From IMG/VR virus record IMGVR_UViG_3300029577_000022, positions 1 to 47,376 of that record: a stretch of DNA of 47,376 nt. One strand, given 5' to 3'. Origin of the DNA: a virus. Below the pieces are notes generated by a model, which saw only the letters and a program-made list of their open reading frames with translations, was not told the DNA's origin and searched no databases. This document shows, in pieces, positions 2,062 through 46,300 of the stretch. Made by a program: the position numbers and the translations under genes. Position 1 is the first letter of the stretch; every line of letters begins with the position of its first letter.

Positions 2062-3255
2062 TTGTCAGAAATTAGAAGAGACAACAAAGGTCGTAAGCTA
2101 GCGACTGGGGAGAGCCAGGATAAAGATGGAAGATACCGTTATAAATATAATGATTCATTTGGAAAGAGAAAATCAGTATATAGTTGGAGATTGACTGAAT
2201 CTGATCCATACCCAAAGGGGAAACGAAAAGATATTTCTCTTAGAGAAAAAGAGAAGGTTATTGAGAAAGCATTAAGTGATGCAGTTTCTACTAATGGTGG
2301 AGATATGACGGTATTAGAATTGGTACAGAGATATATTAGTCAAAAACGAGGTGTAAAACATAATACACAGGCGAATTATAACTTTGTTATCAATGTGATT
2401 AAAAAAGAAGATTTTGGAGCAAGGCGAATTGATACAATCAAATTATCAGATGCTAAAACATGGCTGATAAAGTTACAGGATGATGGTAGAGGATATAGTT
2501 CTATCCATTCTATTAGAGGTGTTGTAAGACCAGCTTTTCAGATGGCAGTTGATGATGATTTGATAAGAAAGAATCCGTTTGAGTTCCAGCTTGCAACGGT
2601 AGTTGTGAATGATAGTGTAACAAGAGAAGCTATTACAAGAAAACAGCAGAGAGAATTTTTGAGGTTTATTAAAGAGGATAAGCATTTCTGCAAATACTAT
2701 GATGGAATTTATATCTTATTTAATACTGGATTGCGTGTCTCTGAATTTGTCGGTTTGACAGCAAATGATATTGAATTTGACAAGCAGAGAATTAAGATTG
2801 ACCATCAATTACAAAGGACACGCAATATGGAATATGAGATATTAACACCTAAGACTGAAAAGGGTGAGAGATATGTTCCTATGAAAGAAGATGTTGCAGA
2901 TTGTTTTCGTAGGATTATACAGAATAGAAAGCATCCAAAGATTGAGCCTATGATAGATGGTTATAGTGGCTTTTTGTTCTTAGATAAGAATGATATGCCT
3001 ATGGTTGCTTTACATTGGGAAAAGTATTTCCAACATATCCGTGAGAAGTATAACAGTATTTACAAAGTACAAATGCCGTGTATTACACCTCATGTATGCA
3101 GACACACCTTCTGCTCTAATATGGCAAAGTCTGGTATGAACCCAAAAACATTACAATATATAATGGGACATTCAGATATAGGAGTTACCCTTAATACATA
3201 TACTCATTTACAGTTTGAGGATGCCTTAGTAGAGATGAAAAAGGTCGTGGGCTAA
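2062..3255 (+). CDS. int: Tyrosine integrase, Tn916-Int-like, with an N-terminal arm-binding domain
   Basis: The N-terminus MSEIRRDNKGRKLATGESQDKDGRYRYKY closely parallels the Tn916 Int N-terminus. The C-terminal catalytic region reads HVCRHTFCS...GHSDIGVTLNTYTH. TTG start with an AAGGAGAG ribosome-binding site. Confidence 0.9.
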   Translation: MSEIRRDNKGRKLATGESQDKDGRYRYKYNDSFGKRKSVYSWRLTESDPYPKGKRKDISLREKEKVIEKALSDAVSTNGGDMTVLELVQRYISQKRGVKHNTQANYNFVINVIKKEDFGARRIDTIKLSDAKTWLIKLQDDGRGYSSIHSIRGVVRPAFQMAVDDDLIRKNPFEFQLATVVVNDSVTREAITRKQQREFLRFIKEDKHFCKYYDGIYILFNTGLRVSEFVGLTANDIEFDKQRIKIDHQLQRTRNMEYEILTPKTEKGERYVPMKEDVADCFRRIIQNRKHPKIEPMIDGYSGFLFLDKNDMPMVALHWEKYFQHIREKYNSIYKVQMPCITPHVCRHTFCSNMAKSGMNPKTLQYIMGHSDIGVTLNTYTHLQFEDALVEMKKVVG

Positions 3256-14650: not shown

Positions 14651-14780
14651 AAACGTGGTACGAGGATAAGAAGAAAGCAGACAAATGAGCACAACGAGGC
14701 GAACGGTCAAGCCGTGGTATTCAATTACAACTTGCCTATCGGCAGTAATGCCACATTATAACAAGAAAGAAGGTGAGACA

Positions 14781-15359
14781 ATGACAAGTGCAGATTTAAC
14801 AGTATTAGAGCCATATTGTAAAGATAATATGCGACTGCTAAAAAAGTTATCAAAGTCAATCTTTTTGAGGCTTAACGAGCCATTGACAGAAGCAGACTAT
14901 GACGATTTTTACAGCATTGCAAATATGACATTGTGGCAGTGTTACAACTCTTATAGCACCGATAAAGGAGCAAGTTTTAATACTTTTCTTTGTGATTGCT
15001 TAAAGAAAAAATTTAAGACAGAGATAAGAGACAGACACAGAGAAAAACGAGTTATCAATCAGTTTACAACCTCATTAGATGCAACTAATGACAGCGAGGA
15101 AGAATGTAGCATACTGGATTTTATACCATCCGATTTTGACACATTTGAGGAAGTAACCAAAAACAACAACGAACAATTTCAAGACAAGGTACAACAGTAC
15201 ATTTCAAAACTTTCTAATCAGCAGGTAAATATATTAAACCTTTTGATTGATGGGTACACACCTAAAGACATACGGCAGATTTTAGAAATTTCATCAACTG
15301 AATATGCTGAAAATATGAAGATTATGAGAAGTTTTGAAAATGTAAAGATTTTATTTTAG
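14781..15359 (+). CDS. Sigma-70-family (ECF-like / conjugative-transposon type) RNA polymerase sigma factor
   Basis: Region-2-like DYDDFYSIANMTLWQCYNSY...FNTFLCDCLKKKFKTEIRDRHREKR and region-4 HTH LSNQQVNILNLLIDGYTPKDIRQILEIS. ATG 14781 follows GAAGGTGAG. Confidence 0.7.
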   Translation: MTSADLTVLEPYCKDNMRLLKKLSKSIFLRLNEPLTEADYDDFYSIANMTLWQCYNSYSTDKGASFNTFLCDCLKKKFKTEIRDRHREKRVINQFTTSLDATNDSEEECSILDFIPSDFDTFEEVTKNNNEQFQDKVQQYISKLSNQQVNILNLLIDGYTPKDIRQILEISSTEYAENMKIMRSFENVKILF

Positions 15360-15371
15360 GAGGTAATCACT

Positions 15372-16469
15372 ATGAAGAATATCAGAAAGCAGACATACAC
15401 ATTAGAGCAGTATTTAAAGGACATGAAGGCAGAAAAAATCAGAACAGACCAGGAATGTCAGAGATTATCAGGACAATGGAATCCAAACATGGTAAATGAA
15501 CTGATTGCATCGGTTCTGACAGATGATTATATCCCACCTATTATTTTAGGTGAGGAAACAACATCAAACGGAATCACAAGACAATGGATAATTGACGGAT
15601 TGCAGAGAAGTAGCACATTATCATTATTCAGATATGGAAACGCAAAAATAACAAAGAATCTTGATGAATATATGGTTACTTATCAGACAAAGGCAACCGA
15701 TGCAGATGGAAATATAAAGCGAGACAAGCAGGGCGAAATTGTATGGGAGAATGTAGATTTTGACATTCGTAACAAGACATACGAGCAGTTACCAGAAGAA
15801 TTGAAAGAGGTATTCAATGGCTATCAGTTAGAGGTTGTAATTCATCAGAATTGCGACACAACGCAAATTTCAAAATTGGTGCGCAAACTGAATAACTGCA
15901 AGCCGATGAATCAAGCCCAACGTGCTTTTACATATATTGATGCGTTTGCAAGGGAAATAAGAGAAATTGCAGACAACAGATTTTTCAAAGATATGTACTC
16001 TTGCAACAACAAAGACAGAATAAACGGAACTTTTGAAAGAGCCATCGGAGATATGGTTATCTTATCTGAATATCCTAATCAGTACAGAAAAGATACAAAG
16101 ATAGGATTCAAGTGGTTAAATGAAAATGCAACCATTCTTGATTTTGAAAATCTTGATGATTTACTCACAAGGTTAGTAGAATCAACGGAAATCACAAGCG
16201 AGATAAGGGAACTGTTCAATAGAAAGAGTGCATATATCTTTGTGGCAGCATTTAAGGCATTTACAAAGTTAGGAAGGGAAGATAAAGCGTTTGGAGAGTT
16301 CCTGCATTGGTTAATTGCAGAAGGTAAAAATACAGAAATCAATGGAAAGACATGGACTGAATTAGATATAGACCGTTCTACAAGGGATAGCAATGTAGTA
16401 CACGGAAAACTTGATTATCTTACAGCACTTATCAATCAGTATTTTACAGAGGTTAAGAAAGTAGCATAA
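15372..16469 (+). CDS. DUF262 / ParB-like nuclease-domain protein
   Basis: ECQRLSGQWNP...YIPPIILGE...WIIDGLQRSSTL matches the DGQQR-type motif. Confidence 0.7.
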   Translation: MKNIRKQTYTLEQYLKDMKAEKIRTDQECQRLSGQWNPNMVNELIASVLTDDYIPPIILGEETTSNGITRQWIIDGLQRSSTLSLFRYGNAKITKNLDEYMVTYQTKATDADGNIKRDKQGEIVWENVDFDIRNKTYEQLPEELKEVFNGYQLEVVIHQNCDTTQISKLVRKLNNCKPMNQAQRAFTYIDAFAREIREIADNRFFKDMYSCNNKDRINGTFERAIGDMVILSEYPNQYRKDTKIGFKWLNENATILDFENLDDLLTRLVESTEITSEIRELFNRKSAYIFVAAFKAFTKLGREDKAFGEFLHWLIAEGKNTEINGKTWTELDIDRSTRDSNVVHGKLDYLTALINQYFTEVKKVA

Positions 16470-18714: not shown

Positions 18715-18939
18715 ATGACAGCATTAAGACAGAGTGCAATAATGGAACTGGAAAAGATACCAGAAGATAAGTTATCCTTTGTAATTCAGATTATGCAGGG
18801 TGTAAATGGATTGTACAATGATTCTAATAAGGAAAGGAAAGAAGCCTTTGCAAGATTAGAACAGTTACGTAAAAAGGGAACTGTTACCGATGATGATGCA
18901 GAATTAGCTTCTTACAGGGAAGATAAATATGGTAGGTAA
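18715..18939 (+). CDS. Antitoxin-like small protein (partner of the PIN toxin)
   Basis: 74 aa. It overlaps the PIN gene by 11 nt. Confidence 0.55.
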   Translation: MTALRQSAIMELEKIPEDKLSFVIQIMQGVNGLYNDSNKERKEAFARLEQLRKKGTVTDDDAELASYREDKYGR

Positions 18940-19342
18940 AATTCTGATTGATACCAATGTATTACTTGATTATCTTCTTGGAAGAGAACCCTTCTTTGAG
19001 GATGCAAAGAAAGTAATCTCGTCATGTACCGAGGAAAATACAAAAGGTTGCATTGCAGCGCATTCTATTTCTAATATGTTCTTTATATTAAGGAAAGATT
19101 ATACTGCAAAGGAAAGAAGAGAAATATTATCAAACCTATGCACGATTTTTGATGTAGAGGGCATAGACAAAGCAAAATTATTATCTGGTCTTGCAAATGA
19201 GGAGTTCTCTGATTTTGAGGATTGCTTACAAATGGAATGTGCAAAAAGTTATGGAGCAGAATATATTGTGACAAGAAATGTATCGGATTATTCAGTATCA
19301 GACATAAAGGCAATTCTGCCAAGTGAATACTTAGGACTATAA
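18929..19342 (+). CDS. PIN-domain toxin (VapC-like)
   Basis: ILIDTNVLLDYLLGREPF at the N-terminus, with later acidic residues (FSDFEDCLQ). Confidence 0.75.
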   Translation: MVGKILIDTNVLLDYLLGREPFFEDAKKVISSCTEENTKGCIAAHSISNMFFILRKDYTAKERREILSNLCTIFDVEGIDKAKLLSGLANEEFSDFEDCLQMECAKSYGAEYIVTRNVSDYSVSDIKAILPSEYLGL

Positions 19343-19840: not shown

Positions 19841-20494
19841 ATGAAAAATGAAGTATGGGGATATGCAAGAGTTTCTACAAAAGAACAGAATCTTGCACGA
19901 CAAATTGAACAGTTAAAAGAGTTTGGAATATCTGAGAGAAATATTAAGTGTGACAAAATAAGCGGAAAGACATTTAATCGAATGGAATACAACGCATTAG
20001 TTGGAACAGAAACAACAGCACCAACTTTAAGAGAGGGAGATTTGCTTGTTATTGTCAGTCTTGATAGGTTGGGTAGAAACTATACGGAAATCAAGGAACA
20101 GTGGAACTATATTATCAATGTTATTGGAGCAGATATTGTTGTGTTGGATATGCCATTACTCGACACAAGGCAATCTGGTGATAATCTTGATAAAAGATTT
20201 ATTGCTGACCTGGTATTACAGATTTTGTCTTATGTGGCACAAAAGGAACTTGAAAACACAAGACGTAGACAAAAACAGGGAATGGATGTTATGCCAGTAA
20301 TCAATGGAAAGAAAACTTCTTTAAAGACAGGCAGACCAACAGGCAGACCAAACGCACAGTTTCCCGATAATTGGAAAGATTACTATGAAAAATGGAGACT
20401 AGGAGAAATGACAGCAACAAAGTGTATGGAAATACTGAATTTGAAAAGGTCAACATTTTATAAGCTGGTTAAGATTTATGAAAAGGATCTGTGA
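19841..20494 (+). CDS. Serine recombinase (resolvase/invertase family)
   Basis: VWGYARVSTKEQNLARQ contains the catalytic Ser motif, and there is a C-terminal HTH (RSTFYKLV). Confidence 0.85.
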   Translation: MKNEVWGYARVSTKEQNLARQIEQLKEFGISERNIKCDKISGKTFNRMEYNALVGTETTAPTLREGDLLVIVSLDRLGRNYTEIKEQWNYIINVIGADIVVLDMPLLDTRQSGDNLDKRFIADLVLQILSYVAQKELENTRRRQKQGMDVMPVINGKKTSLKTGRPTGRPNAQFPDNWKDYYEKWRLGEMTATKCMEILNLKRSTFYKLVKIYEKDL

Positions 20495-22740: not shown

Positions 22741-22806
22741 ATAGGTATTACATAGAAATATGAAAAATAAGATTTGCAAAGGAGATATATGTAATACATA
22801 TAAGCA
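22741..22806 (+). promoter_or_regulatory. Operator-like boxes B1 (ATAGGTATTACATA) and B2 (GTAATACATATAAGCA) flanking promoter-like site S7
   Basis: B1 recurs exactly at 23384. B2 matches 23388..23403 at 15 of 16 positions. Confidence 0.55.
22763..22790 (+). promoter_or_regulatory. Element-specific promoter-like motif, site S7 (AAAAAT-N12-GGAGATATAT)
   Basis: Matches the bipartite consensus. It lies 68 nt upstream of the 22858 start. Confidence 0.45.
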
Positions 22807-22857
22807 ATTTGAAATAATGGATATGCACTATATAGGTACTACATATAAATAATATAT

Positions 22858-23370
22858 ATGAGTGAAAGCAAAGTGTCGGATTCACAGAAACAAGCCCAGA
22901 AAAGATATGATAAGAAAATAAAGATGGTGTCAGTAAAATACACTCTTTCCGAAATGGAAGAATACACACAGCTAAAAGAATATCTGGAAAAGACAAATCA
23001 AAGTATGAACGGATTTGTTAAAGCTCTAATCAGAGCTTATTTTGAATCAGGTAAGGGTACAATATATGAAAGACCACTTGAAAAGAAACTTCATAATACA
23101 AGAACATACCATAACTACAAAAATATAACTATAGATGATATGCAACCTTTGATAGATTATTTTGGAGAAACACAAACACGGGCGTTATTATTCAAATATG
23201 AAAAAATTTTTAAAGATGCTGTTTTAGCTGAAAGAGAAGAGTATGAGACAAAATTATTGATATGGATGGAAGATGTTATGAAAAGAGTTGAACAAGGTGA
23301 GTTTGAGGATATGAAACGAAATGAAAAATACCATAAGTTAAAGGCTGAATTGATTGAATTGATGAAATAG
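22858..23370 (+). CDS. Putative ribbon-helix-helix DNA-binding protein with a C-terminal extension
   Basis: KKIKMVSVKYTLSEMEEYTQLKEYLEKTNQSMNGFVKALIRAYF matches the RHH pattern. The gene is flanked by the B boxes. Confidence 0.5.
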   Translation: MSESKVSDSQKQAQKRYDKKIKMVSVKYTLSEMEEYTQLKEYLEKTNQSMNGFVKALIRAYFESGKGTIYERPLEKKLHNTRTYHNYKNITIDDMQPLIDYFGETQTRALLFKYEKIFKDAVLAEREEYETKLLIWMEDVMKRVEQGEFEDMKRNEKYHKLKAELIELMK

Positions 23371-23383
23371 AAAAAATAATCAG

Positions 23384-23403
23384 CATAGGTATTACATATA
23401 AGC
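23384..23403 (+). promoter_or_regulatory. Operator-like box B3 (ATAGGTATTACATATAAGCA)
   Basis: It combines the B1 and B2 sequences. It sits between the RHH gene and site S1. Confidence 0.55.
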
Positions 23404-23458
23404 ACTATATAAAGATTTTGAAATATAAGTCTTTGTATGGTGCTTTTTTAATTTGCAC

Positions 23459-23485
23459 AAAAATACAAAAACAAGTGGAGAATAT
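23459..23485 (+). promoter_or_regulatory. Element-specific promoter-like motif, site S1 (AAAAAT-N12-GGAGAATAT, exact 12-mer AGTGGAGAATAT)
   Basis: One of three exact 12-mer copies. It lies upstream of the tubR-like/tubZ-like genes. Confidence 0.55.
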
Positions 23486-23502
23486 TATGTTGAAAGGGTT
23501 GA

Positions 23503-23611
23503 TTGCAAAACATTTCATAAAAATTTTCTCATTCTATGGAAATCTGATAAGAGAATGTTTTGAAAAAAATTTTTGATGGTGTAGAAATTTTGCAAAAAAC
23601 AATTTTCAAAA
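23503..23611. repeat. Cluster of T4-(G/C)n-A4 palindromic boxes, including a perfect TTTTGCAAAA at 23588. Candidate centromere (tubC-like).
   Basis: The boxes are ttgcaaaa at 23503, ttttgaaaa at 23558, ttttgcaaaa at 23588 and ttttcaaaa at 23603. The AT-rich background lowers their significance. Confidence 0.3.
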
Positions 23612-23692
23612 GGCGAATAAGTATATAGAGGGCAGAAATGCCAATATATTTTTTAACATTTAATGACGAGAGACAAGGAGGTGTGGAAAGTA

Positions 23693-23938
23693 ATGACAAA
23701 ATTTGATTATGAAATTCTAATGTTACTTTGTAATCAGAATGTGGACAATCCATTAAAAGCTATGAATATTTCACAGATATTAGAAGAAATTTCAGTAGCA
23801 AAAAGAAAATCATACAGTACAACATACAGGCATTTGCAGAGTATGAGCAAACAAGGATATGTGGAATGTGGTCTGATAGATGGATTGGCAAGCACATATT
23901 ATATTAGCGAACTTGGAAAAGCCTACTATAAATCATAG
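23693..23938 (+). CDS. tubR: Winged-helix DNA-binding protein, TubR-like (copy 1)
   Basis: 81 aa. ISQILEEISVAKRKSYSTTYRHLQSMSKQGYVECG...TYYISELG matches the wHTH pattern, and the gene sits immediately upstream of the tubulin-like gene. AAGGAGG ribosome-binding site. Confidence 0.55.
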   Translation: MTKFDYEILMLLCNQNVDNPLKAMNISQILEEISVAKRKSYSTTYRHLQSMSKQGYVECGLIDGLASTYYISELGKAYYKS

Positions 23939-23957
23939 CAGAATGGAGGTAAGAATT

Positions 23958-24230
23958 TTGAAAGTCATTAGTTATTTGATACTTAGTTGGTTATATAGAA
24001 CTGATGCAAAAAGCAAAATTATAGCAGCCACAAGAAAAATGATACTTGATGGACTTGCAGAAGAAGGAACAAGTTATTGTGATAAGACCATTTATAACAA
24101 CCTTAGAAATCTGATACAAGGTGGGTATGTAAAAAATGGAATGCCAGTAGGTAATACATATACATATTACATTACATCTAAAGGTATGAATTGGTTAAAA
24201 GAAATGGAAGAGGAAGAAACGGAGGAATAA
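23958..24230 (+). CDS. Winged-helix DNA-binding protein, TubR-like paralog (copy 2)
   Basis: TIYNNLRNLIQGGYVKNG...TYYITSKG parallels copy 1. The TTG start lies 7 nt after GGAGGT, and ATG 23943 is an alternative. Confidence 0.5.
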   Translation: MKVISYLILSWLYRTDAKSKIIAATRKMILDGLAEEGTSYCDKTIYNNLRNLIQGGYVKNGMPVGNTYTYYITSKGMNWLKEMEEEETEE

Positions 24231-24235
24231 TTATT

Positions 24236-25339
24236 ATGAACAAAAAAATTAACGCAGGATTAAAAATTACAGGCATTGGATGTGGTCAGTGCGGAACACA
24301 GATTATTGCAGAAATCGAAAGAGCAGTAAATCTTCTTGATGGTGATAAGTCAAATCTTTCATTTATTGGAATTAACACAAGTACAGAAGATTTAGCATCT
24401 GTTAGCTTATCTCACAAGATTCATATCAATAATTCTAAGGGTGCTGCTTGCGATAGGGATAAGAGTACAGAAGCATTGGCAGAAGGCATTGATGAAATTT
24501 TAGAAGAATTACAGTCTTACATTATTGAGGATTCAATTATTTTTATTGCATTTTCATGTGGTGGAGGAACAGGATCGGCTATTGCACCTATTCTTAGTGG
24601 AATATTAAAGGAAATGGGATATTCGGTTGGTATGATTCCTGTATTGCCAGCAGATACAGAACCATTAAAGGTAAGAGATAATGCAAGATTGACATTTAAT
24701 GAGATTGATGAATTAAAGCCAGAAATGGGAAGTATTTTTATCCTTGACAATAATGCAAGCGACAAAATTACTGTAAATAAAGTGTTCGCTTCATTATTTA
24801 CAGGTATTCTTTGTATCAATAATAAATCCCAGGATGGAAATATGGATTTGGCAGAAATTGAAGCTTGCTTAAAGTGTCCGTCATTCTCTGTCATTACAAA
24901 AACCAATGCAACAAAGGGAACGACTGCAAATATCATTGATATTTTAAATAAGGATAACAATATTTTTGCAAAGAGAGAGGACAAGACTGTTACGATTATG
25001 GGTATTTCTGAAGCTGTATCAGCAAAGGAAAGTAAGATTGATATTATTCAGTTGCGTAAAGAGGTAGGAACAGCACCAACAGAATTTCATGGTTATCTGT
25101 CTGAATCAGAAGAAAATGTAATTATTCTTAGTGGTTTAACAATGCCATACAGTAGATTGGATTCAATGACAGATGCTATTGAGAAAGAAGCTGTGAATGT
25201 TCAAAACTCTATGAAAGCATTAACAGAAGTAAGAACTGCAAAATCATTAGATATATTTGGACAGAAGGCAGAGCCAGTTGTAGCACCAAAGAAGTCAAAT
25301 AGATTAGATGCACTAAAAGCAAGAAGAATCAGCAAGTAA
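24236..25339 (+). CDS. tubZ: Tubulin/FtsZ-superfamily GTPase, TubZ/PhuZ-like
   Basis: T1-like GIGCGQCGTQI and the tubulin signature SCGGGTGSAIAP are present. 367 aa. ATG follows GGAGGA. Confidence 0.75.
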   Translation: MNKKINAGLKITGIGCGQCGTQIIAEIERAVNLLDGDKSNLSFIGINTSTEDLASVSLSHKIHINNSKGAACDRDKSTEALAEGIDEILEELQSYIIEDSIIFIAFSCGGGTGSAIAPILSGILKEMGYSVGMIPVLPADTEPLKVRDNARLTFNEIDELKPEMGSIFILDNNASDKITVNKVFASLFTGILCINNKSQDGNMDLAEIEACLKCPSFSVITKTNATKGTTANIIDILNKDNNIFAKREDKTVTIMGISEAVSAKESKIDIIQLRKEVGTAPTEFHGYLSESEENVIILSGLTMPYSRLDSMTDAIEKEAVNVQNSMKALTEVRTAKSLDIFGQKAEPVVAPKKSNRLDALKARRISK

Positions 25340-25406
25340 AACAGAGAACAATATAGTGTGTGTGGTGGAAATCCACCCTCACGAACCAAAGAAAGGACTT
25401 TGCTAT

Positions 25407-25808
25407 ATGGGAAAATCAAAAGTAATACAGATGAAGAAAGCAGACAAATCACAGGAAGCGAGACAGATTCTAAAGAATGGTATCGTAAATGGAATGTGTA
25501 TTGAAAAACTAATTCAGATGACAGAATTTGGGCTTGTTGGAAATATAGACAGTGTAAATGGTACGAATGGCACAAGTCATTATTTTAATCGTATGAAATA
25601 TGTTGTGGCTGAAAATGAAAGAGGATTCGATCTTATAAATTATTTCTTCACAGATAAAGAAAACATCATTATAGCAACAACTTCCATCAGCATTGACCAT
25701 ATAGACAATATTTCAGGTTGTATCAATAAAGATAATCCTGACAATGTGCTTGATATAAATATTGTTATGGTGGATGGCGCAGAGATTACAATCAACGTGA
25801 TTTATTAG
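25407..25808 (+). CDS. Hypothetical protein
   Basis: 133 aa from ATG 25407, an internal start of the track ORF. Confidence 0.5.
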   Translation: MGKSKVIQMKKADKSQEARQILKNGIVNGMCIEKLIQMTEFGLVGNIDSVNGTNGTSHYFNRMKYVVAENERGFDLINYFFTDKENIIIATTSISIDHIDNISGCINKDNPDNVLDINIVMVDGAEITINVIY

Positions 25809-25827
25809 ACAGAGGAGGACTAATTAC

Positions 25828-26247
25828 ATGGAACTTACAGAATTATCAAATTTATTAAAGGAACAGAATGAGAGTGGCAAAGGTTTTCAAATTCATTTGA
25901 ACAGTGGAAATCTTGATGAAAAGAGCCAGCATAACACAGATGTTGAGTTTGGTGATTTATATTTCACTAATTGTAGGATGTTGGGAAATACAACACTTCT
26001 GTCATTCGGTAACAACGAAAAAAAGCCAGTAGGATTCAATGAGGAAATCAATCAGCCACTTTATCCAATGGAGATTAATAGCAGTATATTCATTGATATT
26101 GCAAAGATCGAAGCAGTTGAGGCAGTAGAAAATTTTGAGGACTGGTTTATATTTACATCATCGAGAGTCATTAATCTGTACATGCTGCCTCAAAACAACA
26201 ATGTAGACGGACACAGAAATGTTGTAACAATCGGTTTTATTGAGTAA
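25828..26247 (+). CDS. Hypothetical protein
   Basis: 139-aa ORF with a GAGGAGG ribosome-binding site. Confidence 0.55.
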   Translation: MELTELSNLLKEQNESGKGFQIHLNSGNLDEKSQHNTDVEFGDLYFTNCRMLGNTTLLSFGNNEKKPVGFNEEINQPLYPMEINSSIFIDIAKIEAVEAVENFEDWFIFTSSRVINLYMLPQNNNVDGHRNVVTIGFIE

Positions 26248-26280
26248 CAAACAGAGAATGTATATAGGAAGGAAACAGGC

Positions 26281-26421
26281 ATGGTTAAGATATGGATAAG
26301 AGCAGATACTGGTAAGTTATCACATGTAATCGAGTATGAGAACGGACAACGAGTACAGATACCAATAAACAAAGATGGCACTATTAAATGGCTGTCAGAT
26401 AAGATTAAAAAGCATAAATAA
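26281..26421 (+). CDS. Small hypothetical protein (46 aa, below the cutoff)
   Basis: The sequence reads MVKIWIRADTGKLSHVIEYENGQRVQIPINKDGTIKWLSDKIKKHK. AGGAAGGA ribosome-binding site. Confidence 0.45.
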   Translation: MVKIWIRADTGKLSHVIEYENGQRVQIPINKDGTIKWLSDKIKKHK

Positions 26422-33269: not shown

Positions 33270-34496
33270 ATGATGGCAAATAAAAAGAACGAATTTTGTT
33301 GTATGTGTGGAAGCTCAAAAGATGAGGTAGACAAGCTGATTAGAGGAAAATATGGTTACATCTGTGATAGCTGTATTTCTATTGCAAGCGGATTACTCAA
33401 CGATGAAGAAGAGGAATTTGTCACAGATAATATGCGGCTTGCTACACCATCACAGATTAAGGCACATTTAGATCAGTATGTTATTGGACAGGATGAGGCA
33501 AAGAGAACATTAGCAGTTGCAGTCTATAATCACTATAAGAGATTAAAACAGAATAAAAAATCAGATGTTGAGATACAGAAGTCCAACATTTTAATGATTG
33601 GTTCAACAGGTAGTGGAAAGACATATCTTGCACAGAGCCTTGCAAAATTTTTAGGTGTTCCTTTTGCTATTGCTGACGCTACCTGTTTAACTGAGGCTGG
33701 ATATGTCGGCGAAGATGTTGAAACCATGTTGCGTACACTTTTACAGAATGCAAACTATGACATTGAATCAGCACAGCGAGGAATTATCTATATTGATGAG
33801 ATAGATAAGATTTCTCGTAAAGGCGAAAATATGTCAATCACTCGTGATGTATCTGGTGAGGGAGTACAGCAAGCACTTCTTAAAATCATCGAGGGTACAA
33901 TATCAGAAGTGCCAGTAACAGGCAGTAGGAAACATCCACAGGGAGAGACAATAAAGATAGATACATCTAACATACTTTTCATCTGTGGTGGAGCTTTTGA
34001 TGGAATTGATAAGATTATTGGCAAGGAAGAGACACATAACAGCATTGGATTTGGTGCTAATGTTGCCGATAAGAAAGAATCAATTACCGATTTGTCAAAG
34101 GTTGAGCAGCATGATCTTGTTAAGTATGGTCTTATGCCAGAACTTATAGGCAGACTTCCTATTATTACCGCATTGAATCCGCTGTCAGAGGAAGATTTGG
34201 TACATATTCTCACAGAGCCGAAAAATGCTATTACAAAGCAGTATCAAGAATTGCTGTCTATGGATGGTGTGAAACTGGAATTTGAGGATGAAGCATTGAG
34301 AAAGATTGCGGAGTTGGCTATTCAGAAGAAAACCGGTGCAAGAGGATTACGTTCTATAATCGAGGGTTCTATGCAGAAGATAATGTTTGAAATTCCCGAT
34401 ATGTCAATAGCAAAGAGAGTTATTGTGACTGTTGCTTGTGTAGAAGGAAAAGAGGATGCATTGGTGTATGGTGCAAGGAATAAGAAGATAGCTTAG
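33270..34496 (+). CDS. clpX: ClpX-type AAA+ unfoldase, full length
   Basis: C4 zinc domain CCMCGSS...YICDSC, Walker A GSTGSGKT, pore loop AGYVGEDV, Walker [13 protein letters not shown] loop NSIGFGAN, and the sensor region [10 protein letters not shown]. Confidence 0.9.
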
Positions 34497-36596: not shown

Positions 36597-39398
36597 GTGT
36601 ACATAGAGTCAATGCAAGCAAATCAAGTGTATATAGATGCGTTAAAAGATGAGGGCATTGTCATTCACAAGATAAAAGATGAATGGGTAGAATTGAACAA
36701 GGTATCTACTAGAAAAGCAGTACTTGCAGATAGCTTATTTCTTAGATTTATGGATGAAAGTATTACAAGAATTGGTGGTAAATTTAGCAAGGACTTCATT
36801 ATATTAAAGTTTGATTATGATGCTGAATATAAAATTAATGGTGGAGAACCCCAAAAGATAAAGAAAGACGATTTAAGAACATATTACTATACGAATGGAG
36901 TGACATTTACTTCTGAGGTCAAGGACACAAAGAAGAGGAAACAGGCAAAGGAAGATGAAAGATGTCATCCAATACATTATAAGATGCTTATGCGCTCCCC
37001 TGGTAAAGCAAAAGATGGAGAATGTGTATTTATTAGGGATAATCTGTATCATAAAGCTATAAATTTTTTGACTATGGGTTTATACGACATAATGGATGAG
37101 CAATCAAAACAGAATCCAGATAAAATATTTAAGATAGTCGAATTATCAGCATATCTTACGTTAACAACAGCATCTGCCAATGGTTATATAAGGATTCCTT
37201 GGAATAGAATACTTGTTGTTCCAGATGAGGAAGTTTATTCCAAGCCACAAAAGGCTGTAATTGTAAGCAATAAATCTGTGTCATATACATATGATGAAAA
37301 AGAGTTTTTTATTCATTTTGACGATTCACATATTGAAGAACTTATTAACAAGAAGGGCTGTACATTTGATAAGAATAAATCAATCAATGAAAATCTTAAA
37401 TACATTGAGAAGACAAAGGAAGCTCTTAAAGATAATGGTATTAGATGGAATGGAAACTATGGTCATTCAGAGATAACTAAAAAAGAAGAAATAAGACAAG
37501 AATGTGATGCAAAATATGTTTCTGATGAGAGGGTAAAAAATATTCTGTGGGACGGAATGGGATTAATTGATGAATCAATTTTTCCTAAAAATATGAATGG
37601 ATTTATATACTGTAGGTCACATTTCTTCAAGAGTTGTTTGTTCTGTGGAAATATTCAAGAATTTTTCAGAGACTATTGTGCGGAAAATGGAATTGACTAC
37701 AATAGTTTTACTACTGAGAAAATTGATTTATTTGGAAGAAAACTAAGCTTATCTAATATTGATGTTGTTATTACAGATAAATCACTAAAATGGTTGAAGT
37801 TTGTTGATATGATGGGAGGGACGCAAAAAGAAGCGTTTAAATTTTATAAAAATTATATGAAAGAACATGATAATTGGTTTACGATTGTAAAGACAGCTCA
37901 TCCTAGTAAATGGGGAGGTATGCAGTTAATGGCTTATCAAATGAATAATTCACTGCCTACTACAGATGAAGAGATTCTTTCCCGAATTGCAGAAGATTCA
38001 GTTGATTATATTAAAGAGTTAAAGAAAACAACGGATACAGCATATTTACAATATCTTAATCAAAAGAAAAATAATTTCAATATTAATGAAGTTATTTTGG
38101 CATTGGTAAAATGGAATCCTGATTTTAGGAGGACAGCTTTTTTTAGGGATAAAAAGACTAAAGATATAAGCAAACTGAAAAATGAATATTTTAAACAGGG
38201 AAGATTGCTACAGAATGGGGACAATCTTACAGTTATGGGAAACCCGATTGCTTTATTAATGAAAGCAGTAGGTGGAAATCCAATAGAAGAAAATATTTTT
38301 GAGGTGGAAAAGGATGCAATTCAATGTTATACAGCAAGGTTTAAAGATGGAGAAAAATTAGCCGCTTTTAGAAGTCCACATAATTCTCCGAATAATATTC
38401 TACATTTTCATAATGTCTATTCAGACAAATTATCCAAGTACTTTGCAAATTTAGGACGAAATGTGATTGTGATAAATATGGTTGGAACAGATGTACAAGC
38501 TAGAGCCTCGGGAATGGATGAAGACACCGACTTTGTTTATACAACAAATCAACCAGACCTTGCGGAACTTGCGAGAAAAGCTTATACAAATTATCCGACT
38601 ATCATCAATGGTGTGGCAGAAAAGGGGAATAGTTCATATCATTTTAGATTAGAAGATTTTGCACAAATGGATAATCAAATTGCAACAGCACAGCAATCTA
38701 TTGGCACCTCTACAGATACAGCGCAATTAGCCTTGAGTTATTACTATGATGAGGGAATGGATGAGGGGCAAGATGGGGAGGAATTGAAGAAATGTTTTGT
38801 TATATTATCTGTAATTGGTCAGATTAGTATTGATCTTGCTAAAAAGGAATTTGATATAGATGTAGTAAACGAAATTAATCGTATTAAAAGACTACCATGT
38901 ATGAAAGGTAAGGATATACCTGAGTTTTTTGCAAGTACAAAGAAAAGTCGAAATAATAAAGAATTTAATGAAGAAGAAATTCGCTCGATGAATTGTCCTA
39001 TGGATATAATTGCTAGAAATATAGATAGTAGAGTTGTGGGACAAGCTATGGGTGTAACAAGACTTCCTATATCAAAATTTCTTAATAGCAACATTAAAGG
39101 CAAGGGAAATAAATATAAATGGAAAAAATTTATAGAAGCGTCAGAAGTGTATAATAGGTCAATAAAGTATATTGAACAACACAAAACTCAATATACCAAA
39201 AATAGTTACATAGATTTAAAAATGGACTGTATGAGTCATTTTTTGAATTGCACAAACAATAATTTAGATCAAGAGACAGTTATGTTGTTGGTAAAATATG
39301 CTTTTAGTAATAATAATTCAGATGTATGCCAAACAATTTTAAACTTCCTTTATATGAATAATCGTGATAAATTTCTAAATTGTTTTGTGAAAAAGTGA
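36597..39398 (+). CDS. YonO-like single-subunit RNA polymerase candidate (two-barrel, eukaryotic-RdRP-related family)
   Basis: LAAFRSPHNSPNNILHFHNV...RNVIVINMVGTDVQARASGMDEDTDFVYTTNQ parallels the RdRP/YonO pattern R-P-x-x-x-P-x-x-I ... V-I-V-F ... S-G-G-D-L-D-G-D. The upstream WDGMGLIDESI and SAYLTLTTAS...ILVVPDEE resemble earlier conserved RdRP blocks. The start is uncertain (GTG 36597 or ATG 36612). Confidence 0.55.
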   Translation: MYIESMQANQVYIDALKDEGIVIHKIKDEWVELNKVSTRKAVLADSLFLRFMDESITRIGGKFSKDFIILKFDYDAEYKINGGEPQKIKKDDLRTYYYTNGVTFTSEVKDTKKRKQAKEDERCHPIHYKMLMRSPGKAKDGECVFIRDNLYHKAINFLTMGLYDIMDEQSKQNPDKIFKIVELSAYLTLTTASANGYIRIPWNRILVVPDEEVYSKPQKAVIVSNKSVSYTYDEKEFFIHFDDSHIEELINKKGCTFDKNKSINENLKYIEKTKEALKDNGIRWNGNYGHSEITKKEEIRQECDAKYVSDERVKNILWDGMGLIDESIFPKNMNGFIYCRSHFFKSCLFCGNIQEFFRDYCAENGIDYNSFTTEKIDLFGRKLSLSNIDVVITDKSLKWLKFVDMMGGTQKEAFKFYKNYMKEHDNWFTIVKTAHPSKWGGMQLMAYQMNNSLPTTDEEILSRIAEDSVDYIKELKKTTDTAYLQYLNQKKNNFNINEVILALVKWNPDFRRTAFFRDKKTKDISKLKNEYFKQGRLLQNGDNLTVMGNPIALLMKAVGGNPIEENIFEVEKDAIQCYTARFKDGEKLAAFRSPHNSPNNILHFHNVYSDKLSKYFANLGRNVIVINMVGTDVQARASGMDEDTDFVYTTNQPDLAELARKAYTNYPTIINGVAEKGNSSYHFRLEDFAQMDNQIATAQQSIGTSTDTAQLALSYYYDEGMDEGQDGEELKKCFVILSVIGQISIDLAKKEFDIDVVNEINRIKRLPCMKGKDIPEFFASTKKSRNNKEFNEEEIRSMNCPMDIIARNIDSRVVGQAMGVTRLPISKFLNSNIKGKGNKYKWKKFIEASEVYNRSIKYIEQHKTQYTKNSYIDLKMDCMSHFLNCTNNNLDQETVMLLVKYAFSNNNSDVCQTILNFLYMNNRDKFLNCFVKK

Positions 39399-40303: not shown

Positions 40304-43300
40304 TTGAATAACTTTATTTTACAGTTGGTTGCTGGTCTTAATAAGACAAAAAGCAAGCAACAGATTAAGTCAGACGCAAAAAGTCTTGGCGACATGAAGT
40401 TCGTCAAGCTGATTGGTAACCTTGATATGCCAAAAACAAGGAAAGCAATCAAAGCACAGTTGAAGGGATTAAATAATCTTACATTCAACATCACACCGAA
40501 TGTAAATACAAAAGGTGTACAGACAGCAACCAAACAGGCAATTAACAATGCACAGAGGGTTGCAAATAGTAATAAGGTTCATCTGAACTTTGATACAAGC
40601 AAGCAACAGTTAGTGAACCAGATTAAGATTCTGGGAAGGAATAATAATAAACTTTTCAATAATCATGAAATGACCGCTAAATACAATCAGTTGCTTAATG
40701 CCGCTAATGTAGCAAAGAGTACAGGAGAACTAAAAACTCTTAGAGGTGAGTTGTCGGCATTTAAGACGGAGCTTGTAGCAACGAATAATGCAGGTATGAC
40801 TTGGGGAAGTAAATTCAAAGAATCTGTTAAGAGTTATACGAAATTTTTTAGTGGTGCAAGTCTGGTTTATGCCATTTCTAATCAGGTCAGAAATGCAGCA
40901 ACCGAAGCAAAGACATTAGATGATAGTCTTGTAAATCTTCAGAAAGTAACAGATGAAATTTCTGACAGAGATGCGTTATACAAGTATTTTAACAAATCTC
41001 TTAGCAAGGCACAGGAACTTAATGTAAAAGTTGGTTCATTGATTGACGCTGTAACAGAGTTTAAAAAGCTTGGTTGGGATTTAGACGATGCAGAACTTGG
41101 TTCGAAGTGGGCAAACATTTTATCAAACGTTGGAGATCTTAATATTGATACGGCAATCGGTTCAATTAAAACCTCTATTGCTTCATTTGATGAAATTGGT
41201 GGATATGGTAATGACCAGATGGACAAGAAACTTGAAGCTTATGCAGACCTCATCAATAATATGTCAAACAAGTACAGTATTGATGCGGAAGGGTTAGCCG
41301 AAAGCATTAGATTATCGGCTGGTACATTGACAGAAGCACATATGAGTATTGAACAAGCTGCTACAATGTTTGCTACAGCTAATAAATACTATAATGATCC
41401 GTCATACCTCGGTAACACAGCAAAGATCGGTTCATTAAGAATGAGAGCTTCATCTGGTGACACAGATGCTATTGAAGAGTTGCAGGAGATGGGCGAAGAA
41501 GTTGACGATTTAGCAACAGCCACAAGTAACTTGCGTGAAAAGCTCATGGCATTAACTGGTGTTGATATTATGGAAGATGAGCATACATTCAAATCTTATT
41601 ATGACCAGTTATACGAGATTTCACAAGTTATGGATAAGTTGGATGATACCTCACGTGCAAATGTTCTTGAGACTATATTCGGTAAATCGAGAAGTGCAGC
41701 AGGTGCCGCTATTTTATCTGGTATGAAGGAATCTGCATCAGCTTATGAAGATGCAATCAATAGTGCAGGAAGTGCTACAGAAGAGTATCAAACTTGGATG
41801 ACCAGTGCTGACGCAGCGTGTCAGAGGTTTTCTAACACTCTTACAGAGACATATCAGAGTATTATCAATGGTAATACAGTACGTGACCTTGCCAATTTAG
41901 GTTCGGCAGTTTTGGAATTTGCTAATAATTGGGGAATTGTAGAAGGTACGCTAAAAGGTGTAATTGCACTCAATCTTGGTAAATTTATTGCTACTGGTGG
42001 TATGGCACTCATTACAGCTACAAAACAAGTAGAGCAATATGGAAAAGCCTTACAGAAGGCAAGTAATGTTCCGAATGGTAACTTATCTGCTAGATTCCAG
42101 GCATTAAAGAGTATTGCACAGGCAACAAGTACATTGACAACAGAACAGTTAAGAAATGTATTAGCCACAAACACACTTACTCAGGCTGACAGAGTGCGTA
42201 TCTTACAGATGCAAGGTATGACAAAAGAGATGGCATTACAGAAACTTGCTGAAATGAATTTAACGCAAGCGACAAATGCACAGACCGCAGCTAATACAGC
42301 TAGTACAGCAAGTACATTTTCGCTTAAAGCGGCTATGACAGGACTTGGTGCGACATTAAAGAGTGTGTTTCTTAGCAATCCAGTAGGAATTGTACTTATG
42401 GGTATAAGTCTTGGAGTTAGTGCAGTAACATCCGCAATATCTAAGCATAATCAAAAGTTAGAGGAAGATCGGCAGAAAGCTAAAGAAGCAGCAGACGCAG
42501 CCAATACATTAGGTGATGAGATTGCTACATTAGCAAACAAATACATCCAGTTATCGGATGCAGTAAAAACAGACGCAAGTGCAAAAGAAGATTTAATGAC
42601 TACACAGACAGAGTTATTAAAGAAACTTGGACTTGAAGGAGAAAGCATTGATGATTTGATTGCGAAATATGGTTCTTTATCAAATGCCATTAAACAAGCA
42701 AGCATTGATTCATTGAAAAATCAACAGATTGACTTGATTGCTGGTGTAAATGCAGCAAAAGAAGAGTTGATGGATGTTGCAAAAGATAACTTCTGGGGTA
42801 CTAACAATATTATTAGTGCATCGGGAGAAGAAGCAGTAAAAGCATTTAAAGAGCTTGAAAAAGCTGGTGTAATTGATAGTGGTTCATATGGTACTGGTGG
42901 TGGTCAGTTAGTTTTAATTGGCGATGATACAGTTGAGGGAGCATTAGAAAATTACAAAAAACTCGAAGATGCAGTAAACGCATTAAGAGATTCAGAAGCA
43001 TTCACGGCTGATGAATTATCAGACAATTCACTATTTAATTCTATCTATAGTAGGTATAGTGAGATGAAGGAATCAGTAGAGGCATACAATTCATCTATTG
43101 ATAACTTAAATGAAAACTTGGCTCAACAGACAATGTTGATAGCGTTACAGGGTAATGAATTACCTAAGACAGAAGAAGACTTTAACAAATTTAAGCAAGA
43201 GCTGATTGATACAGCAGTTGCAAGTAAACAATTTATTGGAAACGAAAAGGAGATTACCGATGCGATTAACAATTATCTATCGACAGTTCCTGAGTTTGAA

Positions 43301-46300
43301 GGCTATTACAGCATTCCTCTGGAAAACGAACTTGATAAAGTAGATGAATTGTTGAATCAAGAGGACTTTTCAAAAACATTTACTGATACGCTTGCACAAG
43401 TTCAGGCTTTATCGGATGGTTTAGACCAACTTGATAAAATCTATGCTGATGTTTACAACAAAGAGGATTTTGATTGGTCATCTATTCTAAATAATGACGA
43501 CTTCAAAGAACAATTCGGGTCATTAAAAGATACTACAGAAGAATATGCAAATGCATATAATAATTTTATCAAAACAGTAAGCAATTCTCCGTCTGATTTG
43601 TCGGCTTGTCAATCAGCATTTGATAATCTTGCATCGGCATATATTTATAATTCTGATGCACTAAAAAATGTAACAGAAGAGACAAAAACAGCTACAGTGG
43701 CTATGCTTGAGCAAATGGGTGTTGCTAATGCATCTGAAATTGTTGATTATCAATTAGCCGCAAGCAAGGAGTATGCTGCACAGACAGGCAGAGACTTAAA
43801 AAATGCTACATTGGAAGAACTCGTTGCATTTGCACAGGAAGCAGATATGTCAGATGTGACAAAAGCTTCTCTAGCAAGTTACATAGCAGAAAAAATACGT
43901 GCAGCAAGTATTACAATCACCACTTCTGCGGATATTGCAAATCTTACAGCTTTATGTTCGCAACTTGGAGTCGCAGGAACTGCACTACAACAGTTTGCTC
44001 GCTTAAAAGCTATCGCAATGGATACAAGTGGAAAATATACAGATGGTTATAAAGAATATGCTACTACTGCGGCTGATCAGATTTTACAAAACGCTGTGAG
44101 CAAAGCAACAAGTGCGTATAAACCACAAGTTAACTATTCTGGTGGTGCATCTACTAAATCTGCAATAGATAAAGCCAATAAAGCAGCGAAGGACTCTGCT
44201 AAAGATGCAAAAGAAACCGCACAAAACATCGACTGGATCGAAACGAAATTAAAATTGGCTTCTAAGGAAACAGAAAAGCTTAGCAAATCTTTCGACAAAG
44301 CGTTTGGTATGAATCAGACAAGAGAAAGATACCAAGCATATATTTCTCAGATAGAATCCGAGATCCATGACAATACAACCGCCGCACAGGTATATCAAGA
44401 GAAGTTAAATCAGATTGGTTTATCCTATGAGTGGATTGCAAAGATTCAGTCAGGTGCATTTTCTATTGACAGTATTACAGACGAAAATCTCAAAACTCAG
44501 ATATCCGAATATCAGACATATTCAGATAAGTTAAATAGCTGTTACGACACTATTGAGAGTCTTGAAGAAGAACGTCTGCAAGCTTCTGTTAATTATGCTG
44601 AAAAATTAATTGACTCCCATGAAAAAGAAATAGATTCGATTAATAAACTGATTGATCGTAGAAAAGCATTAGTTTCTTTAAAGGAAACATTCGGTTTATC
44701 TGCTTCCAAATCTGACTTGAAATATCAACAGGATCAGTATGAACAGGAAATTGATGCGCTTGAAAGACAGAATAAAGAAATATACGATCTCATGTGGACT
44801 ACTACTTATGGTGACGAAGCATGGCAAAAGTATAACGACCAGATGATTGAAAATACTTCCAGTATTCAAGATCTCACACAGTCTCTTGCTGATTTAGCAT
44901 CTGAAATGGCTAATCTTCCGATTGACAAGTATGAAAAAGCTTTAGATAAGATTTCTGCAAAAAATGATTTACTTGATGCAAAACTTGAGAATGCTACGAG
45001 CGATAAAGCTAAGAGTAAAATTATTGGTAGTCAGTTGAAGCTTACTAGGAAGAAAGATAACAGTGCTCAGTCTGCGGCTAAAACGACACAAAGTAATTTG
45101 AATCAGTCTGTTAAGGATTTAAAAACTGCAACGAAAAAGGATAATAATATATCTGTTTACAACGTTGACGCTTCGGGTCCCAATGTAAAAGCAAGAACTG
45201 CGGTAAATGGCTACTATAAAAAAGTACAGAATTATACCAAGGCAAAGAAACAAATTCCAGCTTCTTTAATTTCTAAAATTTCTGGTGACGGATACTCTAC
45301 ATTATCAAAAGCATGTGCTAATTACAATGCTGCTTTAGTTGCCAACGACACAGCACAAGCAACGGCTGCTTTAAGTAGAGAAACTATCAGACAGGAACTC
45401 GCTGATTTAGCGGAACAGAGAGCGAGTCTTGCAAAGACAACTGCTGATTCCAAAGTTGAGAAATATGATTCTAAAGACGAACTGTATGATGCTAAACTCG
45501 ACAACGCTACTTCTACTTCTTCTAAGAATAAACTGATTGACAGAAAGATTTCTAATATCAACAATCGTCAGAGTGCGTATAATACTGCGGTTAAAACTGA
45601 TAATAAGAATATCAAATCAGCACAGAAAAATATCAGCAAAATCAAGTCTACGAAAGAGAATAAGAAGGTTCTCACTTCTATCAAGAAGACTGCTAAAGCT
45701 GGGAAACGTATTTCCCAATCTTTGTTAAACAAAGCTGCAAAACTGAATGATGGTGGAAAGTTATATGATGCATGTATTCAGTATAACGCTTATTTAGATG
45801 CGAAAGAAGCCGACAAAGCTACTGCTGATTTATACAAAGAAACAGCAAAACAGGATAAGGCTACTCTTGCAAAAGAAAAGTTTGATAATATTGCATCCAA
45901 CTATGATAATAAAATTTCTAGCAATGAGCAGAAAAAGACAGAAATAAATAATAGAATTTCTCTCGTAGAGGAATTTGGTGAACAGGCAAATGTATCTGAT
46001 TATAAGTCACTTATCTCTGCTGAAAATGGCGAATATCAAAAACTCATTAAAGAGCGTGAAGAACTTCGGAGAAATTTAGAAGAGTCTGTTGTAAATGGTT
46101 CTATCAAAAAAGGCAGTGATGAATGGTATGATATGGTCGCTAAAATCAATGATGTAACAAATGCCATAGATGAATCAATTCAATCAATTAAACAATACCA
46201 GAACGCTCTTCGTCAATTAAAATGGGATACTTTTGACAAGTCCATGGAAACTGTAAAACGTGTCAATAGTGAAGCTGATTACTATATTGATCTTTTGAGT

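Follow-up and report, generated by a model that had tools for sequence, protein, structure and literature searches.

A predicted c-st-type TubZ-TubR pair behind a separately evolving TubR-family gene in a temperate phage of Lachnospiraceae

Can a tubulin-based segregation module use two TubR adaptors at once, or do two neighboring TubR-like genes have separate histories? The question is raised by a stretch of viral DNA of 47,376 nucleotides (nt), positions 1 to 47,376 of IMG/VR record IMGVR_UViG_3300029577_000022 (hereafter, the window), in which an open reading frame (ORF) with tubulin motifs is preceded, on the same strand, by two small genes that we call R1 and R2. The canonical type III system consists of a centromere, tubC, a single TubR, TubZ, and a nearby MerR-like protein, TubY (PMC7762940). 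A first-pass annotation, made from the letters alone, read the locus as a TubZ-like module with a duplicated adaptor and proposed that palindromic boxes upstream of R1 could be the centromere. By comparing the window with related loci, we find that R1 and R2 differ sharply in their distribution. The tubulin-like gene and R2 probably form a segregation or positioning cassette of the c-st type (type III, TubZRC-like), placed behind an R1 gene that has evolved separately.

TubZ and the two small genes

The tubulin-like ORF (24236-25339, + strand) encodes 367 amino acids (aa) from an ATG with GGAGG 10 nt upstream. It carries, all on the + strand, a T1 loop GIGCGQCG (24272-24295), a T4 motif GGGTGS (24560-24577), an LDNN motif (24743-24754), a T7-like GNMDLAEIE (24836-24862) and a basic C-terminal tail (25289-25336), which is conserved and gives the last 20 residues a net charge of +6. 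In an alignment of 14 sequences that includes c-st TubZ, residues G17, G20, GGTGS, D171, N172, N173, D204 and E207 are invariant.

We judged the family of this protein from database match scores. Its top matches in the PDB are TubZ of phage c-st (4xcq, E = 4e-22, 82 bits; 3v3t, E = 3e-21), followed by RepX/TubZ of pXO1 (4ei7, E = 6e-11, 45 bits) and by FtsZ (E about 1e-8, at most 38 bits). In Pfam, the protein exceeds the thresholds of Tubulin (PF00091; 63 bits, threshold 33) and of TubZ_C_3 (28.3 bits, threshold 27), whereas with the NCBIfam FtsZ equivalog it reaches 51 of the 295 bits required. Among PHROGs, phrog_17961 matches at 79.5 bits and PhuZ at 33.8 bits. Because the PDB, Pfam, NCBIfam and PHROG scores favor TubZ over FtsZ and PhuZ, we assign the ORF to TubZ of the c-st phage type, with intact GTPase motifs, and not to FtsZ. 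The first-pass annotation had called this ORF TubZ-like on the strength of GGGTGS and GIGCGQCG, and had proposed profile searches against the TubZ, PhuZ and FtsZ families; these bear the call out, and neither a grouping with FtsZ nor a loss of GTPase residues was seen. With the protein, tblastn reaches phages c-st and D-1873 and phage-plasmids of C. botulinum, at 28% identity over 89% of the length; positions 22800-26300 have no DNA-level match in phage and plasmid collections.

Directly upstream lie R1 (23693-23938, + strand, 81 aa, ATG start), the first gene of the operon, and R2 (23958-24230, + strand, 90 aa, TTG start, GGAGG 8 nt upstream). Strong GGAGG ribosome-binding sites precede R1, R2 and TubZ, three consecutive genes. 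The wing pattern GYV..G....TYYI(S/T)..G that had been noted in both small proteins is confirmed, and the two align at 29% identity over 82 residues (pairwise E = 1e-6). Comparison with other TubZ and R1 loci, which we collected from IMG/VR, GTDB genomes and metagenome assemblies and designate by L-numbers, shows that longer calls are not conserved: a 91-aa extension of the R1 ORF is broken by a stop in L034, and a 116-aa extension of the R2 ORF is closed in L006.

Both proteins belong to the TubR winged-helix family, as had been proposed. A profile of the R1 family (27 sequences) finds c-st TubR (6tey) in the PDB at E = 6e-7, its sole match below E = 0.7, and a profile of the R2 family, built without c-st, finds the same structure at E = 1.3e-9, with the next match at 0.011. 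By hhalign, the R1 family matches TubZ-adjacent TubRs at 98-98.7% probability over the full length. Within the R1 family (alignment A2), the recognition helix RKSYSTTYRHL is invariant and the wing DGLASTYYI is conserved. The AlphaFold model of R1, with a predicted local distance difference test score (pLDDT) of 92.5, is a winged helix whose top fold match is TubR of pBM400 (4asn, template-modeling score (TM) 0.82), the sole structural match at E ≤1e-3; c-st TubR (6tey) comes fifth (TM 0.73). Pfam returns only weak, sub-threshold matches of R1 to the IclR, ArsR and PadR helix-turn-helix families.

Which of the two is the partner of TubZ can be read from related loci. We call type A those loci whose TubZ is of the window's kind. 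In type A loci L007-L020 (63-72% TubZ identity), there is one TubR, the R2 orthologue, and no R1; in every type A locus without R1, an orthologue of R2 lies directly 5' of TubZ, with 40-55% identity in alignment A5 and 41-44% by tblastn for L007-L013. More widely, about 25 readable TubZ loci outside the window clade, including c-st and a C. perfringens plasmid, have one TubR-like gene upstream, except that no TubR-like ORF was found upstream of TubZ in L030, a locus from an archaeal metagenome-assembled genome (MAG); the earlier remark that a two-TubR layout is unusual therefore holds. R2 is both adjacent to tubZ and co-inherited with it, as is typical of a TubR. Because no type A locus lacks an R2 orthologue immediately 5' of TubZ, R2 appears to be the partner, and thus the cognate adaptor, of this type of TubZ. 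Its C-terminal tail, EMEEEETEE, is acidic (charge -6).

Among known systems, the module is close to TubZRC(Y) of c-st (TubZ 3v3t/4xcq, TubR 6tey), whose TubZ is the best solved match and which it resembles in having a winged-helix TubR directly upstream in the same orientation and in being phage-borne in a host of the class Clostridia. It differs in having two TubR-family genes instead of one, in the basic tail of its TubZ (…LDALKARRISK), unlike the c-st tail, and in showing no recognizable block-structured tubC with TTGAC and (A/T)GAA iterons. Furthermore, c-st is a plasmid prophage, whereas the window encodes an integrase and its element also turns up on records of chromosome size. A tblastn search with c-st TubY against the whole window gave no match at E ≤1, and Pfam found no MerR domain in the neighboring ORFs scanned. 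With the Bacillus TubZRC systems (pBtoxis, pXO1 RepX, pBM400, pBsph), the module shares the tubR-tubZ operon logic; its TubZ matches RepX 4ei7, and the R1 model superposes best on pBM400 TubR. TubZ of Bacillus thuringiensis has a basic C-terminal tail, like TubZ of the window. The Bacillus systems differ in their very low sequence identity, in their clear arrays of 12-bp iterons 5' of a single tubR with TubY nearby (PMC7762940), and in being plasmid-borne, not phage-borne. Together, TubZ and R2 look like an additional member of the c-st-type TubZR family, in an R1-TubR-TubZ arrangement that appears to be new.

Distribution of R1 and the TubR-TubZ cassettes

If R1 were a second adaptor of this TubZ, the two might be expected to travel together. 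R1 and R2 occur together only in the window clade (at least 92% TubZ identity), where they do so in 10 of 10 independent contigs. Other members of the R1 family, whose identities range from 53 to 99%, stand in two further settings. In the first, R1 orthologues that are 56-89% identical to R1 of the window precede a second kind of cassette, type B. Its TubR has 81-94 aa, and its TubZ, at 349-350 aa, is only about 30% identical to TubZ of the window. All seven type B loci from IMG/VR have R1. In L048, R1 is followed directly by the type B TubR and TubZ, and in L034, L042-45 and L063-66, one or two unrelated genes separate R1 from the cassette. L042 makes the disparity plain, as its R1 is 89% identical to that of the window while the TubZ behind it, of type B and 349 aa long, is 30% identical.

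In the second setting, R1 has no tubulin gene nearby. In L036-38 and L050, where R1 is 81% identical, the upstream gene of 170 aa is 86% identical to that of the window and the same non-coding region precedes R1, no tubulin gene was found within 10 kb on either side of R1 (10 kb was read for L050 alone). Likewise, none was found near R1 in L046/47, L067 and L039-41 in the 4-6 kb of flank read per side. One example of an R1 phage contig without TubZ in these flanks is logan SRR33870861_17128, of 66 kb. A Pfam search of these TubZ-less R1 loci for an alternative partition NTPase found none.

Over the flanks read, R1 is thus not co-inherited with tubZ, and its identity does not track that of TubZ; R1 is therefore a TubR homologue, and only a putative TubR in function. 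As R1 is found in three settings (type B loci, tubulin-less loci and the window clade), it is therefore best described as a backbone gene that heads the operon. The TubR-TubZ pairs behave, as far as gene order and identity tell, as exchangeable two-gene cassettes placed behind R1, with at least two highly divergent types in the same slot. R1 and R2, for their part, do not appear to be a locally duplicated pair, and R1 seems to be a separately evolving lineage. The earlier description of a duplicated adaptor is contradicted by the occurrence of R1 ahead of the other cassette type and in tubulin-less relatives.

From the family assignments, gene order, distribution across relatives and upstream conservation, which the comparison shows directly, we infer how DNA binding, contact between R2 and TubZ, a regulatory role of R1 and the stage at which the module acts could fit together. 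In a group of temperate phages of Lachnospiraceae, R1 heads an operon that extends far rightward. R2 would bind phage DNA at a putative centromere, and the R2-DNA complex would capture the basic C-terminal tail of TubZ, possibly via the acidic tail of R2, so that GTP-driven TubZ filaments could move the phage DNA. R1 would act independently of TubZ and most likely regulate its own promoter or leader, for which two AATTTT(G)CAAAA boxes at 23586-23611 are candidate sites. Our best guess for R1 is therefore an autoregulator of the conserved leader described below.

Two kinds of neighboring gene recur at these loci. The 170-aa gene (22858-23370, + strand) stands directly 5' of R1 in most R1 loci, with 86% identity in L036 and 33% in L034; by eye its N-terminus suggested a ribbon-helix-helix protein, a candidate that neither Pfam, NCBIfam nor the PDB supports. 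Separately, related proteins that share a motif like 'KKYP.VDI.KV.I...' and then '…L.NGYEQYLIAKE' are encoded in L009 (3156-3671), L014 (1947-2798), L015 (3333-3647) and L034 (5295-5927). Their genes lie either shortly 5' of TubR or in the interval that separates R1 from TubR, and the proteins might be ParB/Srx-like.

Phage lifestyle and the role of the module

The window is 33% G+C, is transcribed almost wholly on the + strand and belongs to a temperate phage of gut Lachnospiraceae, with hosts that include Roseburia and Eubacterium. This raises a question that is independent of R1, namely whether the TubR-TubZ pair serves plasmid partition or instead positions or transports the DNA of an integrating phage while that DNA replicates, after induction or in the lytic cycle. 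We think a lytic role possible, though not the likelier one. It would fit the Tn916-type tyrosine integrase encoded at 2062-3255 (+ strand) and the records on which relatives are found. A protein identical to R2 is listed for Roseburia rectibacter (WP_186900398.1). At 3.96 Mb, the longest contig with the exact R2 sequence is presumably the R. rectibacter chromosome (accession and length are listed separately). Contigs of 140-375 kb carry members of the R2 and TubZ clusters, type A relatives are found on MAG contigs of 166-322 kb, and host-like genes flank the copy in L053. Together with independent assemblies of about 57-62 kb, which recur, the integrase and the R. rectibacter record suggest an integrating temperate phage with a genome of about 60 kb. 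As a temperate phage is thus found on chromosome-sized records, plasmid partition is not the sole possible role.

Phage-encoded cytomotive filaments that serve in lytic replication are known from PhuZ of the jumbo phages and from AlpC/AlpA of the integrated prophage CGP3 (PMC4446434); a lytic-phase role in an integrating phage is a possible further likeness. PhuZ gives only a weak PHROG match (34 bits), scores far below the c-st TubZ family and has no TubR adaptor; AlpC is actin-like, not tubulin-like.

Other features pull towards maintenance as an episome. The closest characterized homologue, TubZRC of c-st, is the partition system of a plasmid prophage (PMC6009700). Besides the long contigs, many members of the R2 and TubZ clusters lie on assemblies of about 57-62 kb, which could be free circular forms, and the long contigs themselves could be megaplasmids or chimeric bins. 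In addition, a PIN-domain toxin (18929-19342, + strand) and a small serine resolvase (19841-20494, + strand) are encoded 3-5 kb upstream of the TubZ module, and in L036/L050 and L043 a XerC-like tyrosine recombinase stands in the position that the resolvase has here. This block looks like a plasmid-style combination of toxin-antitoxin and multimer resolution.

Elsewhere, the window encodes, on the + strand, a sigma-70-family factor (14685-15359), a GmrSD_N-domain protein (15372-16469) and a ClpX-like AAA+ ATPase with a ClpX zinc finger (33270-34496). It also encodes HNH nucleases and a cold-shock-domain protein. An ORF of 933 aa (36597-39398, + strand) appears to be a YonO-like single-subunit RNA polymerase of the RNA-dependent RNA polymerase (RdRP) type. 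It matches phrog_8308, of unknown function, at 252 bits, its homologue in L052 carries Pfam PF05183 (RdRP), and further homologues are found in Enterocloster phage PMBT24 (annotated 'RNA-dependent RNA polymerase') and on 197-kb plasmids of C. botulinum. The last ORF (40304-47374, + strand), which is still open at the end of the window, exceeds 2357 aa and matches the minor-tail/tape-measure family PF10145 over residues 237-460. A tape-measure-like ORF of this size means that the tail must be very long and that the genome reaches past the window.

The region upstream of R1

The conclusion that R1 stands apart from the cassette has to be weighed against a reading in which R1 and R2 work together, whether joined in a heterodimer or bound separately to one centromere, with tubC at 23450-23660 and TubZ partitioning an extrachromosomal prophage. 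The layout invites it, in that two TubR-family genes, adjacent, co-oriented, separated by 19 nt and provided with strong ribosome-binding sites, co-occur in all 10 contigs of the window clade, and R1 recurs ahead of a second, unrelated TubRZ cassette type. The canonical second DNA-binding protein, TubY (PMC7762940), is absent here, so R1 could fill its role. Moreover, the region upstream of R1 is the only sizeable non-coding DNA 5' of tubR.

The region begins after an intrinsic terminator. A terminator scan places the hairpin of the upstream 170-aa gene, followed by U6, at 23400-23445 (+ strand); its folding energy is -23.2 kcal/mol (z = -7.18), none of 200 shuffles was as stable, and it is kept in L003, L004, L006 and L036. 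The imperfect box TTTTGAAAT (23416) is the loop of this hairpin. From 23446 to 23692 (+ strand) runs a non-coding promoter or leader region of about 250 nt. Alignments with L005, L006, L036, L042-44 and L048 divide it into conserved blocks at about 23465-23552 and at 23580-23692, with a variable A/T spacer between them. It precedes R1 in loci with a type A TubZ, a type B TubZ or none.

The boxes on which the proposed centromere was based are of mixed standing. AATTTT(G)CAAAA forms a direct repeat (23586-23611, + strand) whose two copies, at 23586 and 23601, are 15 bp apart and include TTTTGCAAAA (present once, at 23588) and TTTTCAAAA (23603). Across R1 loci at 68-95% R1 identity, no box but these two is conserved, and in the upstream regions of L034, L039 and L046 even they are not. 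The perfect palindrome takes the form TTTTACAAAA in L036, one of the TubZ-less loci. Strict T4-(G/C)-A4 boxes number two in the region, at 23558 and 23603, and the one at 23558 falls in the spacer, which differs even between close relatives. Across the window there are six against 3.7 expected, which is not significant. Locally, the clustering is unusual: a count of two strict boxes in 217 nt is reached in 0.3% of stretches of the same size and in 0.7% of shuffles, for a pattern that was chosen post hoc. Thus, of the several boxes reported earlier, the perfect palindrome and the two strict copies are present, and only two of the boxes are conserved.

A further comparison concerns type A phages without R1. 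Over 346 nt, the non-coding DNA ahead of their TubR is 85% identical to that ahead of R1 in the TubZ-less L046. As the upstream region is conserved with R1 whatever the cassette, and as this 346-nt match links an R1-less to a TubZ-less locus, these regions look like backbone leaders rather than cassette-specific centromeres. The same terminator and boxes precede R1 in a relative that has neither R2 nor TubZ, and no iteron array was found in the upstream region; reading it as the centromere is probably wrong.

On the 346-nt region itself, we note that it spans 3334-3678 in L007 and 3539-3876 in L046, that the divergent repressor-like genes flanking it are only 24% identical, and that it opens with a TTGACA...TATAGT promoter. 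Possible readings are a structured leader RNA and a regulatory element; no Rfam family was found in 22.5-26 kb of the window or in the L007 leader.

Two small elements lie within the R1 leader. A possible ORF of 29 aa, MLKGLIAKHFIKIFSFYGNLIRECFEKNF (23488-23577, + strand), with GGAG 7 nt upstream, falls in the most conserved block. L005, L006, L036 and L042-44 retain the frame and an ATG in spite of a 1-nt indel, and vary too little to separate coding from DNA-level conservation. Just before the R1 ribosome-binding site, a GGCA-GAAA-TGCC hairpin followed by a T-run (23615-23662, + strand) keeps its stem through wobble or compensatory changes in L042, L046, L048 and L034. Its fold is only modestly stable (-7.6 kcal/mol, z = -2.6), and it could be an attenuator. 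A scan of the region for sigma-70 promoters gave no more sites than shuffles, and by eye we found no convincing -35/-10 pair.

Returning to the two-adaptor reading, we consider it unlikely. R1 and the same upstream region occur without a nearby tubulin gene, the closest type A systems manage with one TubR, and R1 and TubZ do not co-vary (89% against 30% identity). At several loci, other genes intervene between R1 and TubR. Of the boxes proposed as its centromere, one is the loop of a terminator and one is not conserved. One point in its favor concerns the centromere of c-st. The iterons of c-st tubC are 4-5 nt long and spread over more than 350 bp (PMC6009700), and would escape sequence scans. 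TTGAC and (A/T)GAA, the iterons of c-st, show no enrichment here; with iterons of 4-5 nt, scans of the sequence alone can neither reliably detect a centromere nor exclude one.

A variant with a somewhat smaller chance makes R1 a cassette-independent centromere or 'landing-pad' protein, which would occupy the conserved upstream region and cooperate with whichever cassette, type A or type B, lies behind it. If so, these phages would carry a three-protein type III system with a TubR paralogue in place of TubY, and R1 would keep a regulatory role alone in the TubZ-less relatives.

Several observations weigh against our preferred reading, in which R1 is a regulator that stands apart from a TubZ-R2 cassette. 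In about two-thirds of the sampled R1 lineages, a TubR-TubZ pair lies within about 1.6 kb downstream, and these pairs are of two unrelated cassette types; such proximity is compatible with a functional link beyond synteny. The absence of TubZ refers to flanks of 4-10 kb on each side of R1. In R1-bearing phages, R2 and the type B TubR have no non-coding region of their own, which leaves the region upstream of R1 as the nearest place for a classical tubC. No centromere for R2 has come to light: no iteron array was found by repeat search of the upstream region or by TRF on 20-29 kb, and no repeats shared upstream of type A TubRs were found in five loci or by k-mer enumeration in ten. Neither was a binding site found that is common to all R1 upstream regions, despite the invariant recognition helix; the sole element common to the divergent ones (window, L034, L039) is the leader AATGACGAGAG. 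Finally, structure prediction, which the first-pass annotation had proposed for both small proteins, succeeded for R1, which matches TubR, but gave an unusable AlphaFold 2 model of R2 (pLDDT 42), because only five homologues were in the alignment.

By comparison, it is hardly credible that the GTPase is a divergent FtsZ or cell-division protein or an inactive tubulin relic, and the small genes unrelated regulators of the PadR or MarR type: some source annotations do read 'cell division GTPase FtsZ' and 'PadR family transcriptional regulator', and R1 has its weak Pfam matches to IclR, ArsR and PadR, but the TubZ matches are far stronger and include a TubZ C-terminal domain, 14 aligned sequences share the catalytic T7 residues, neither R1 nor R2 has a significant solved relative other than TubR, and the TubR-TubZ pair is kept across highly divergent loci.

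Studies of type III (TubZ) segregation have dealt with a few Bacillus plasmids and a single Clostridium phage. With 226 protein clusters at E <1e-5, c-st-like TubZ-TubR cassettes are widespread in temperate phages of human-gut Lachnospiraceae; R1/TubR-like proteins form 162 clusters. Because these phages integrate, they raise the question of whether their TubZ serves episomal maintenance or the positioning of DNA in the lytic phase. A TubR paralogue that lives without TubZ would also offer a natural test case for how an adaptor and a transcription factor diverge from one fold.

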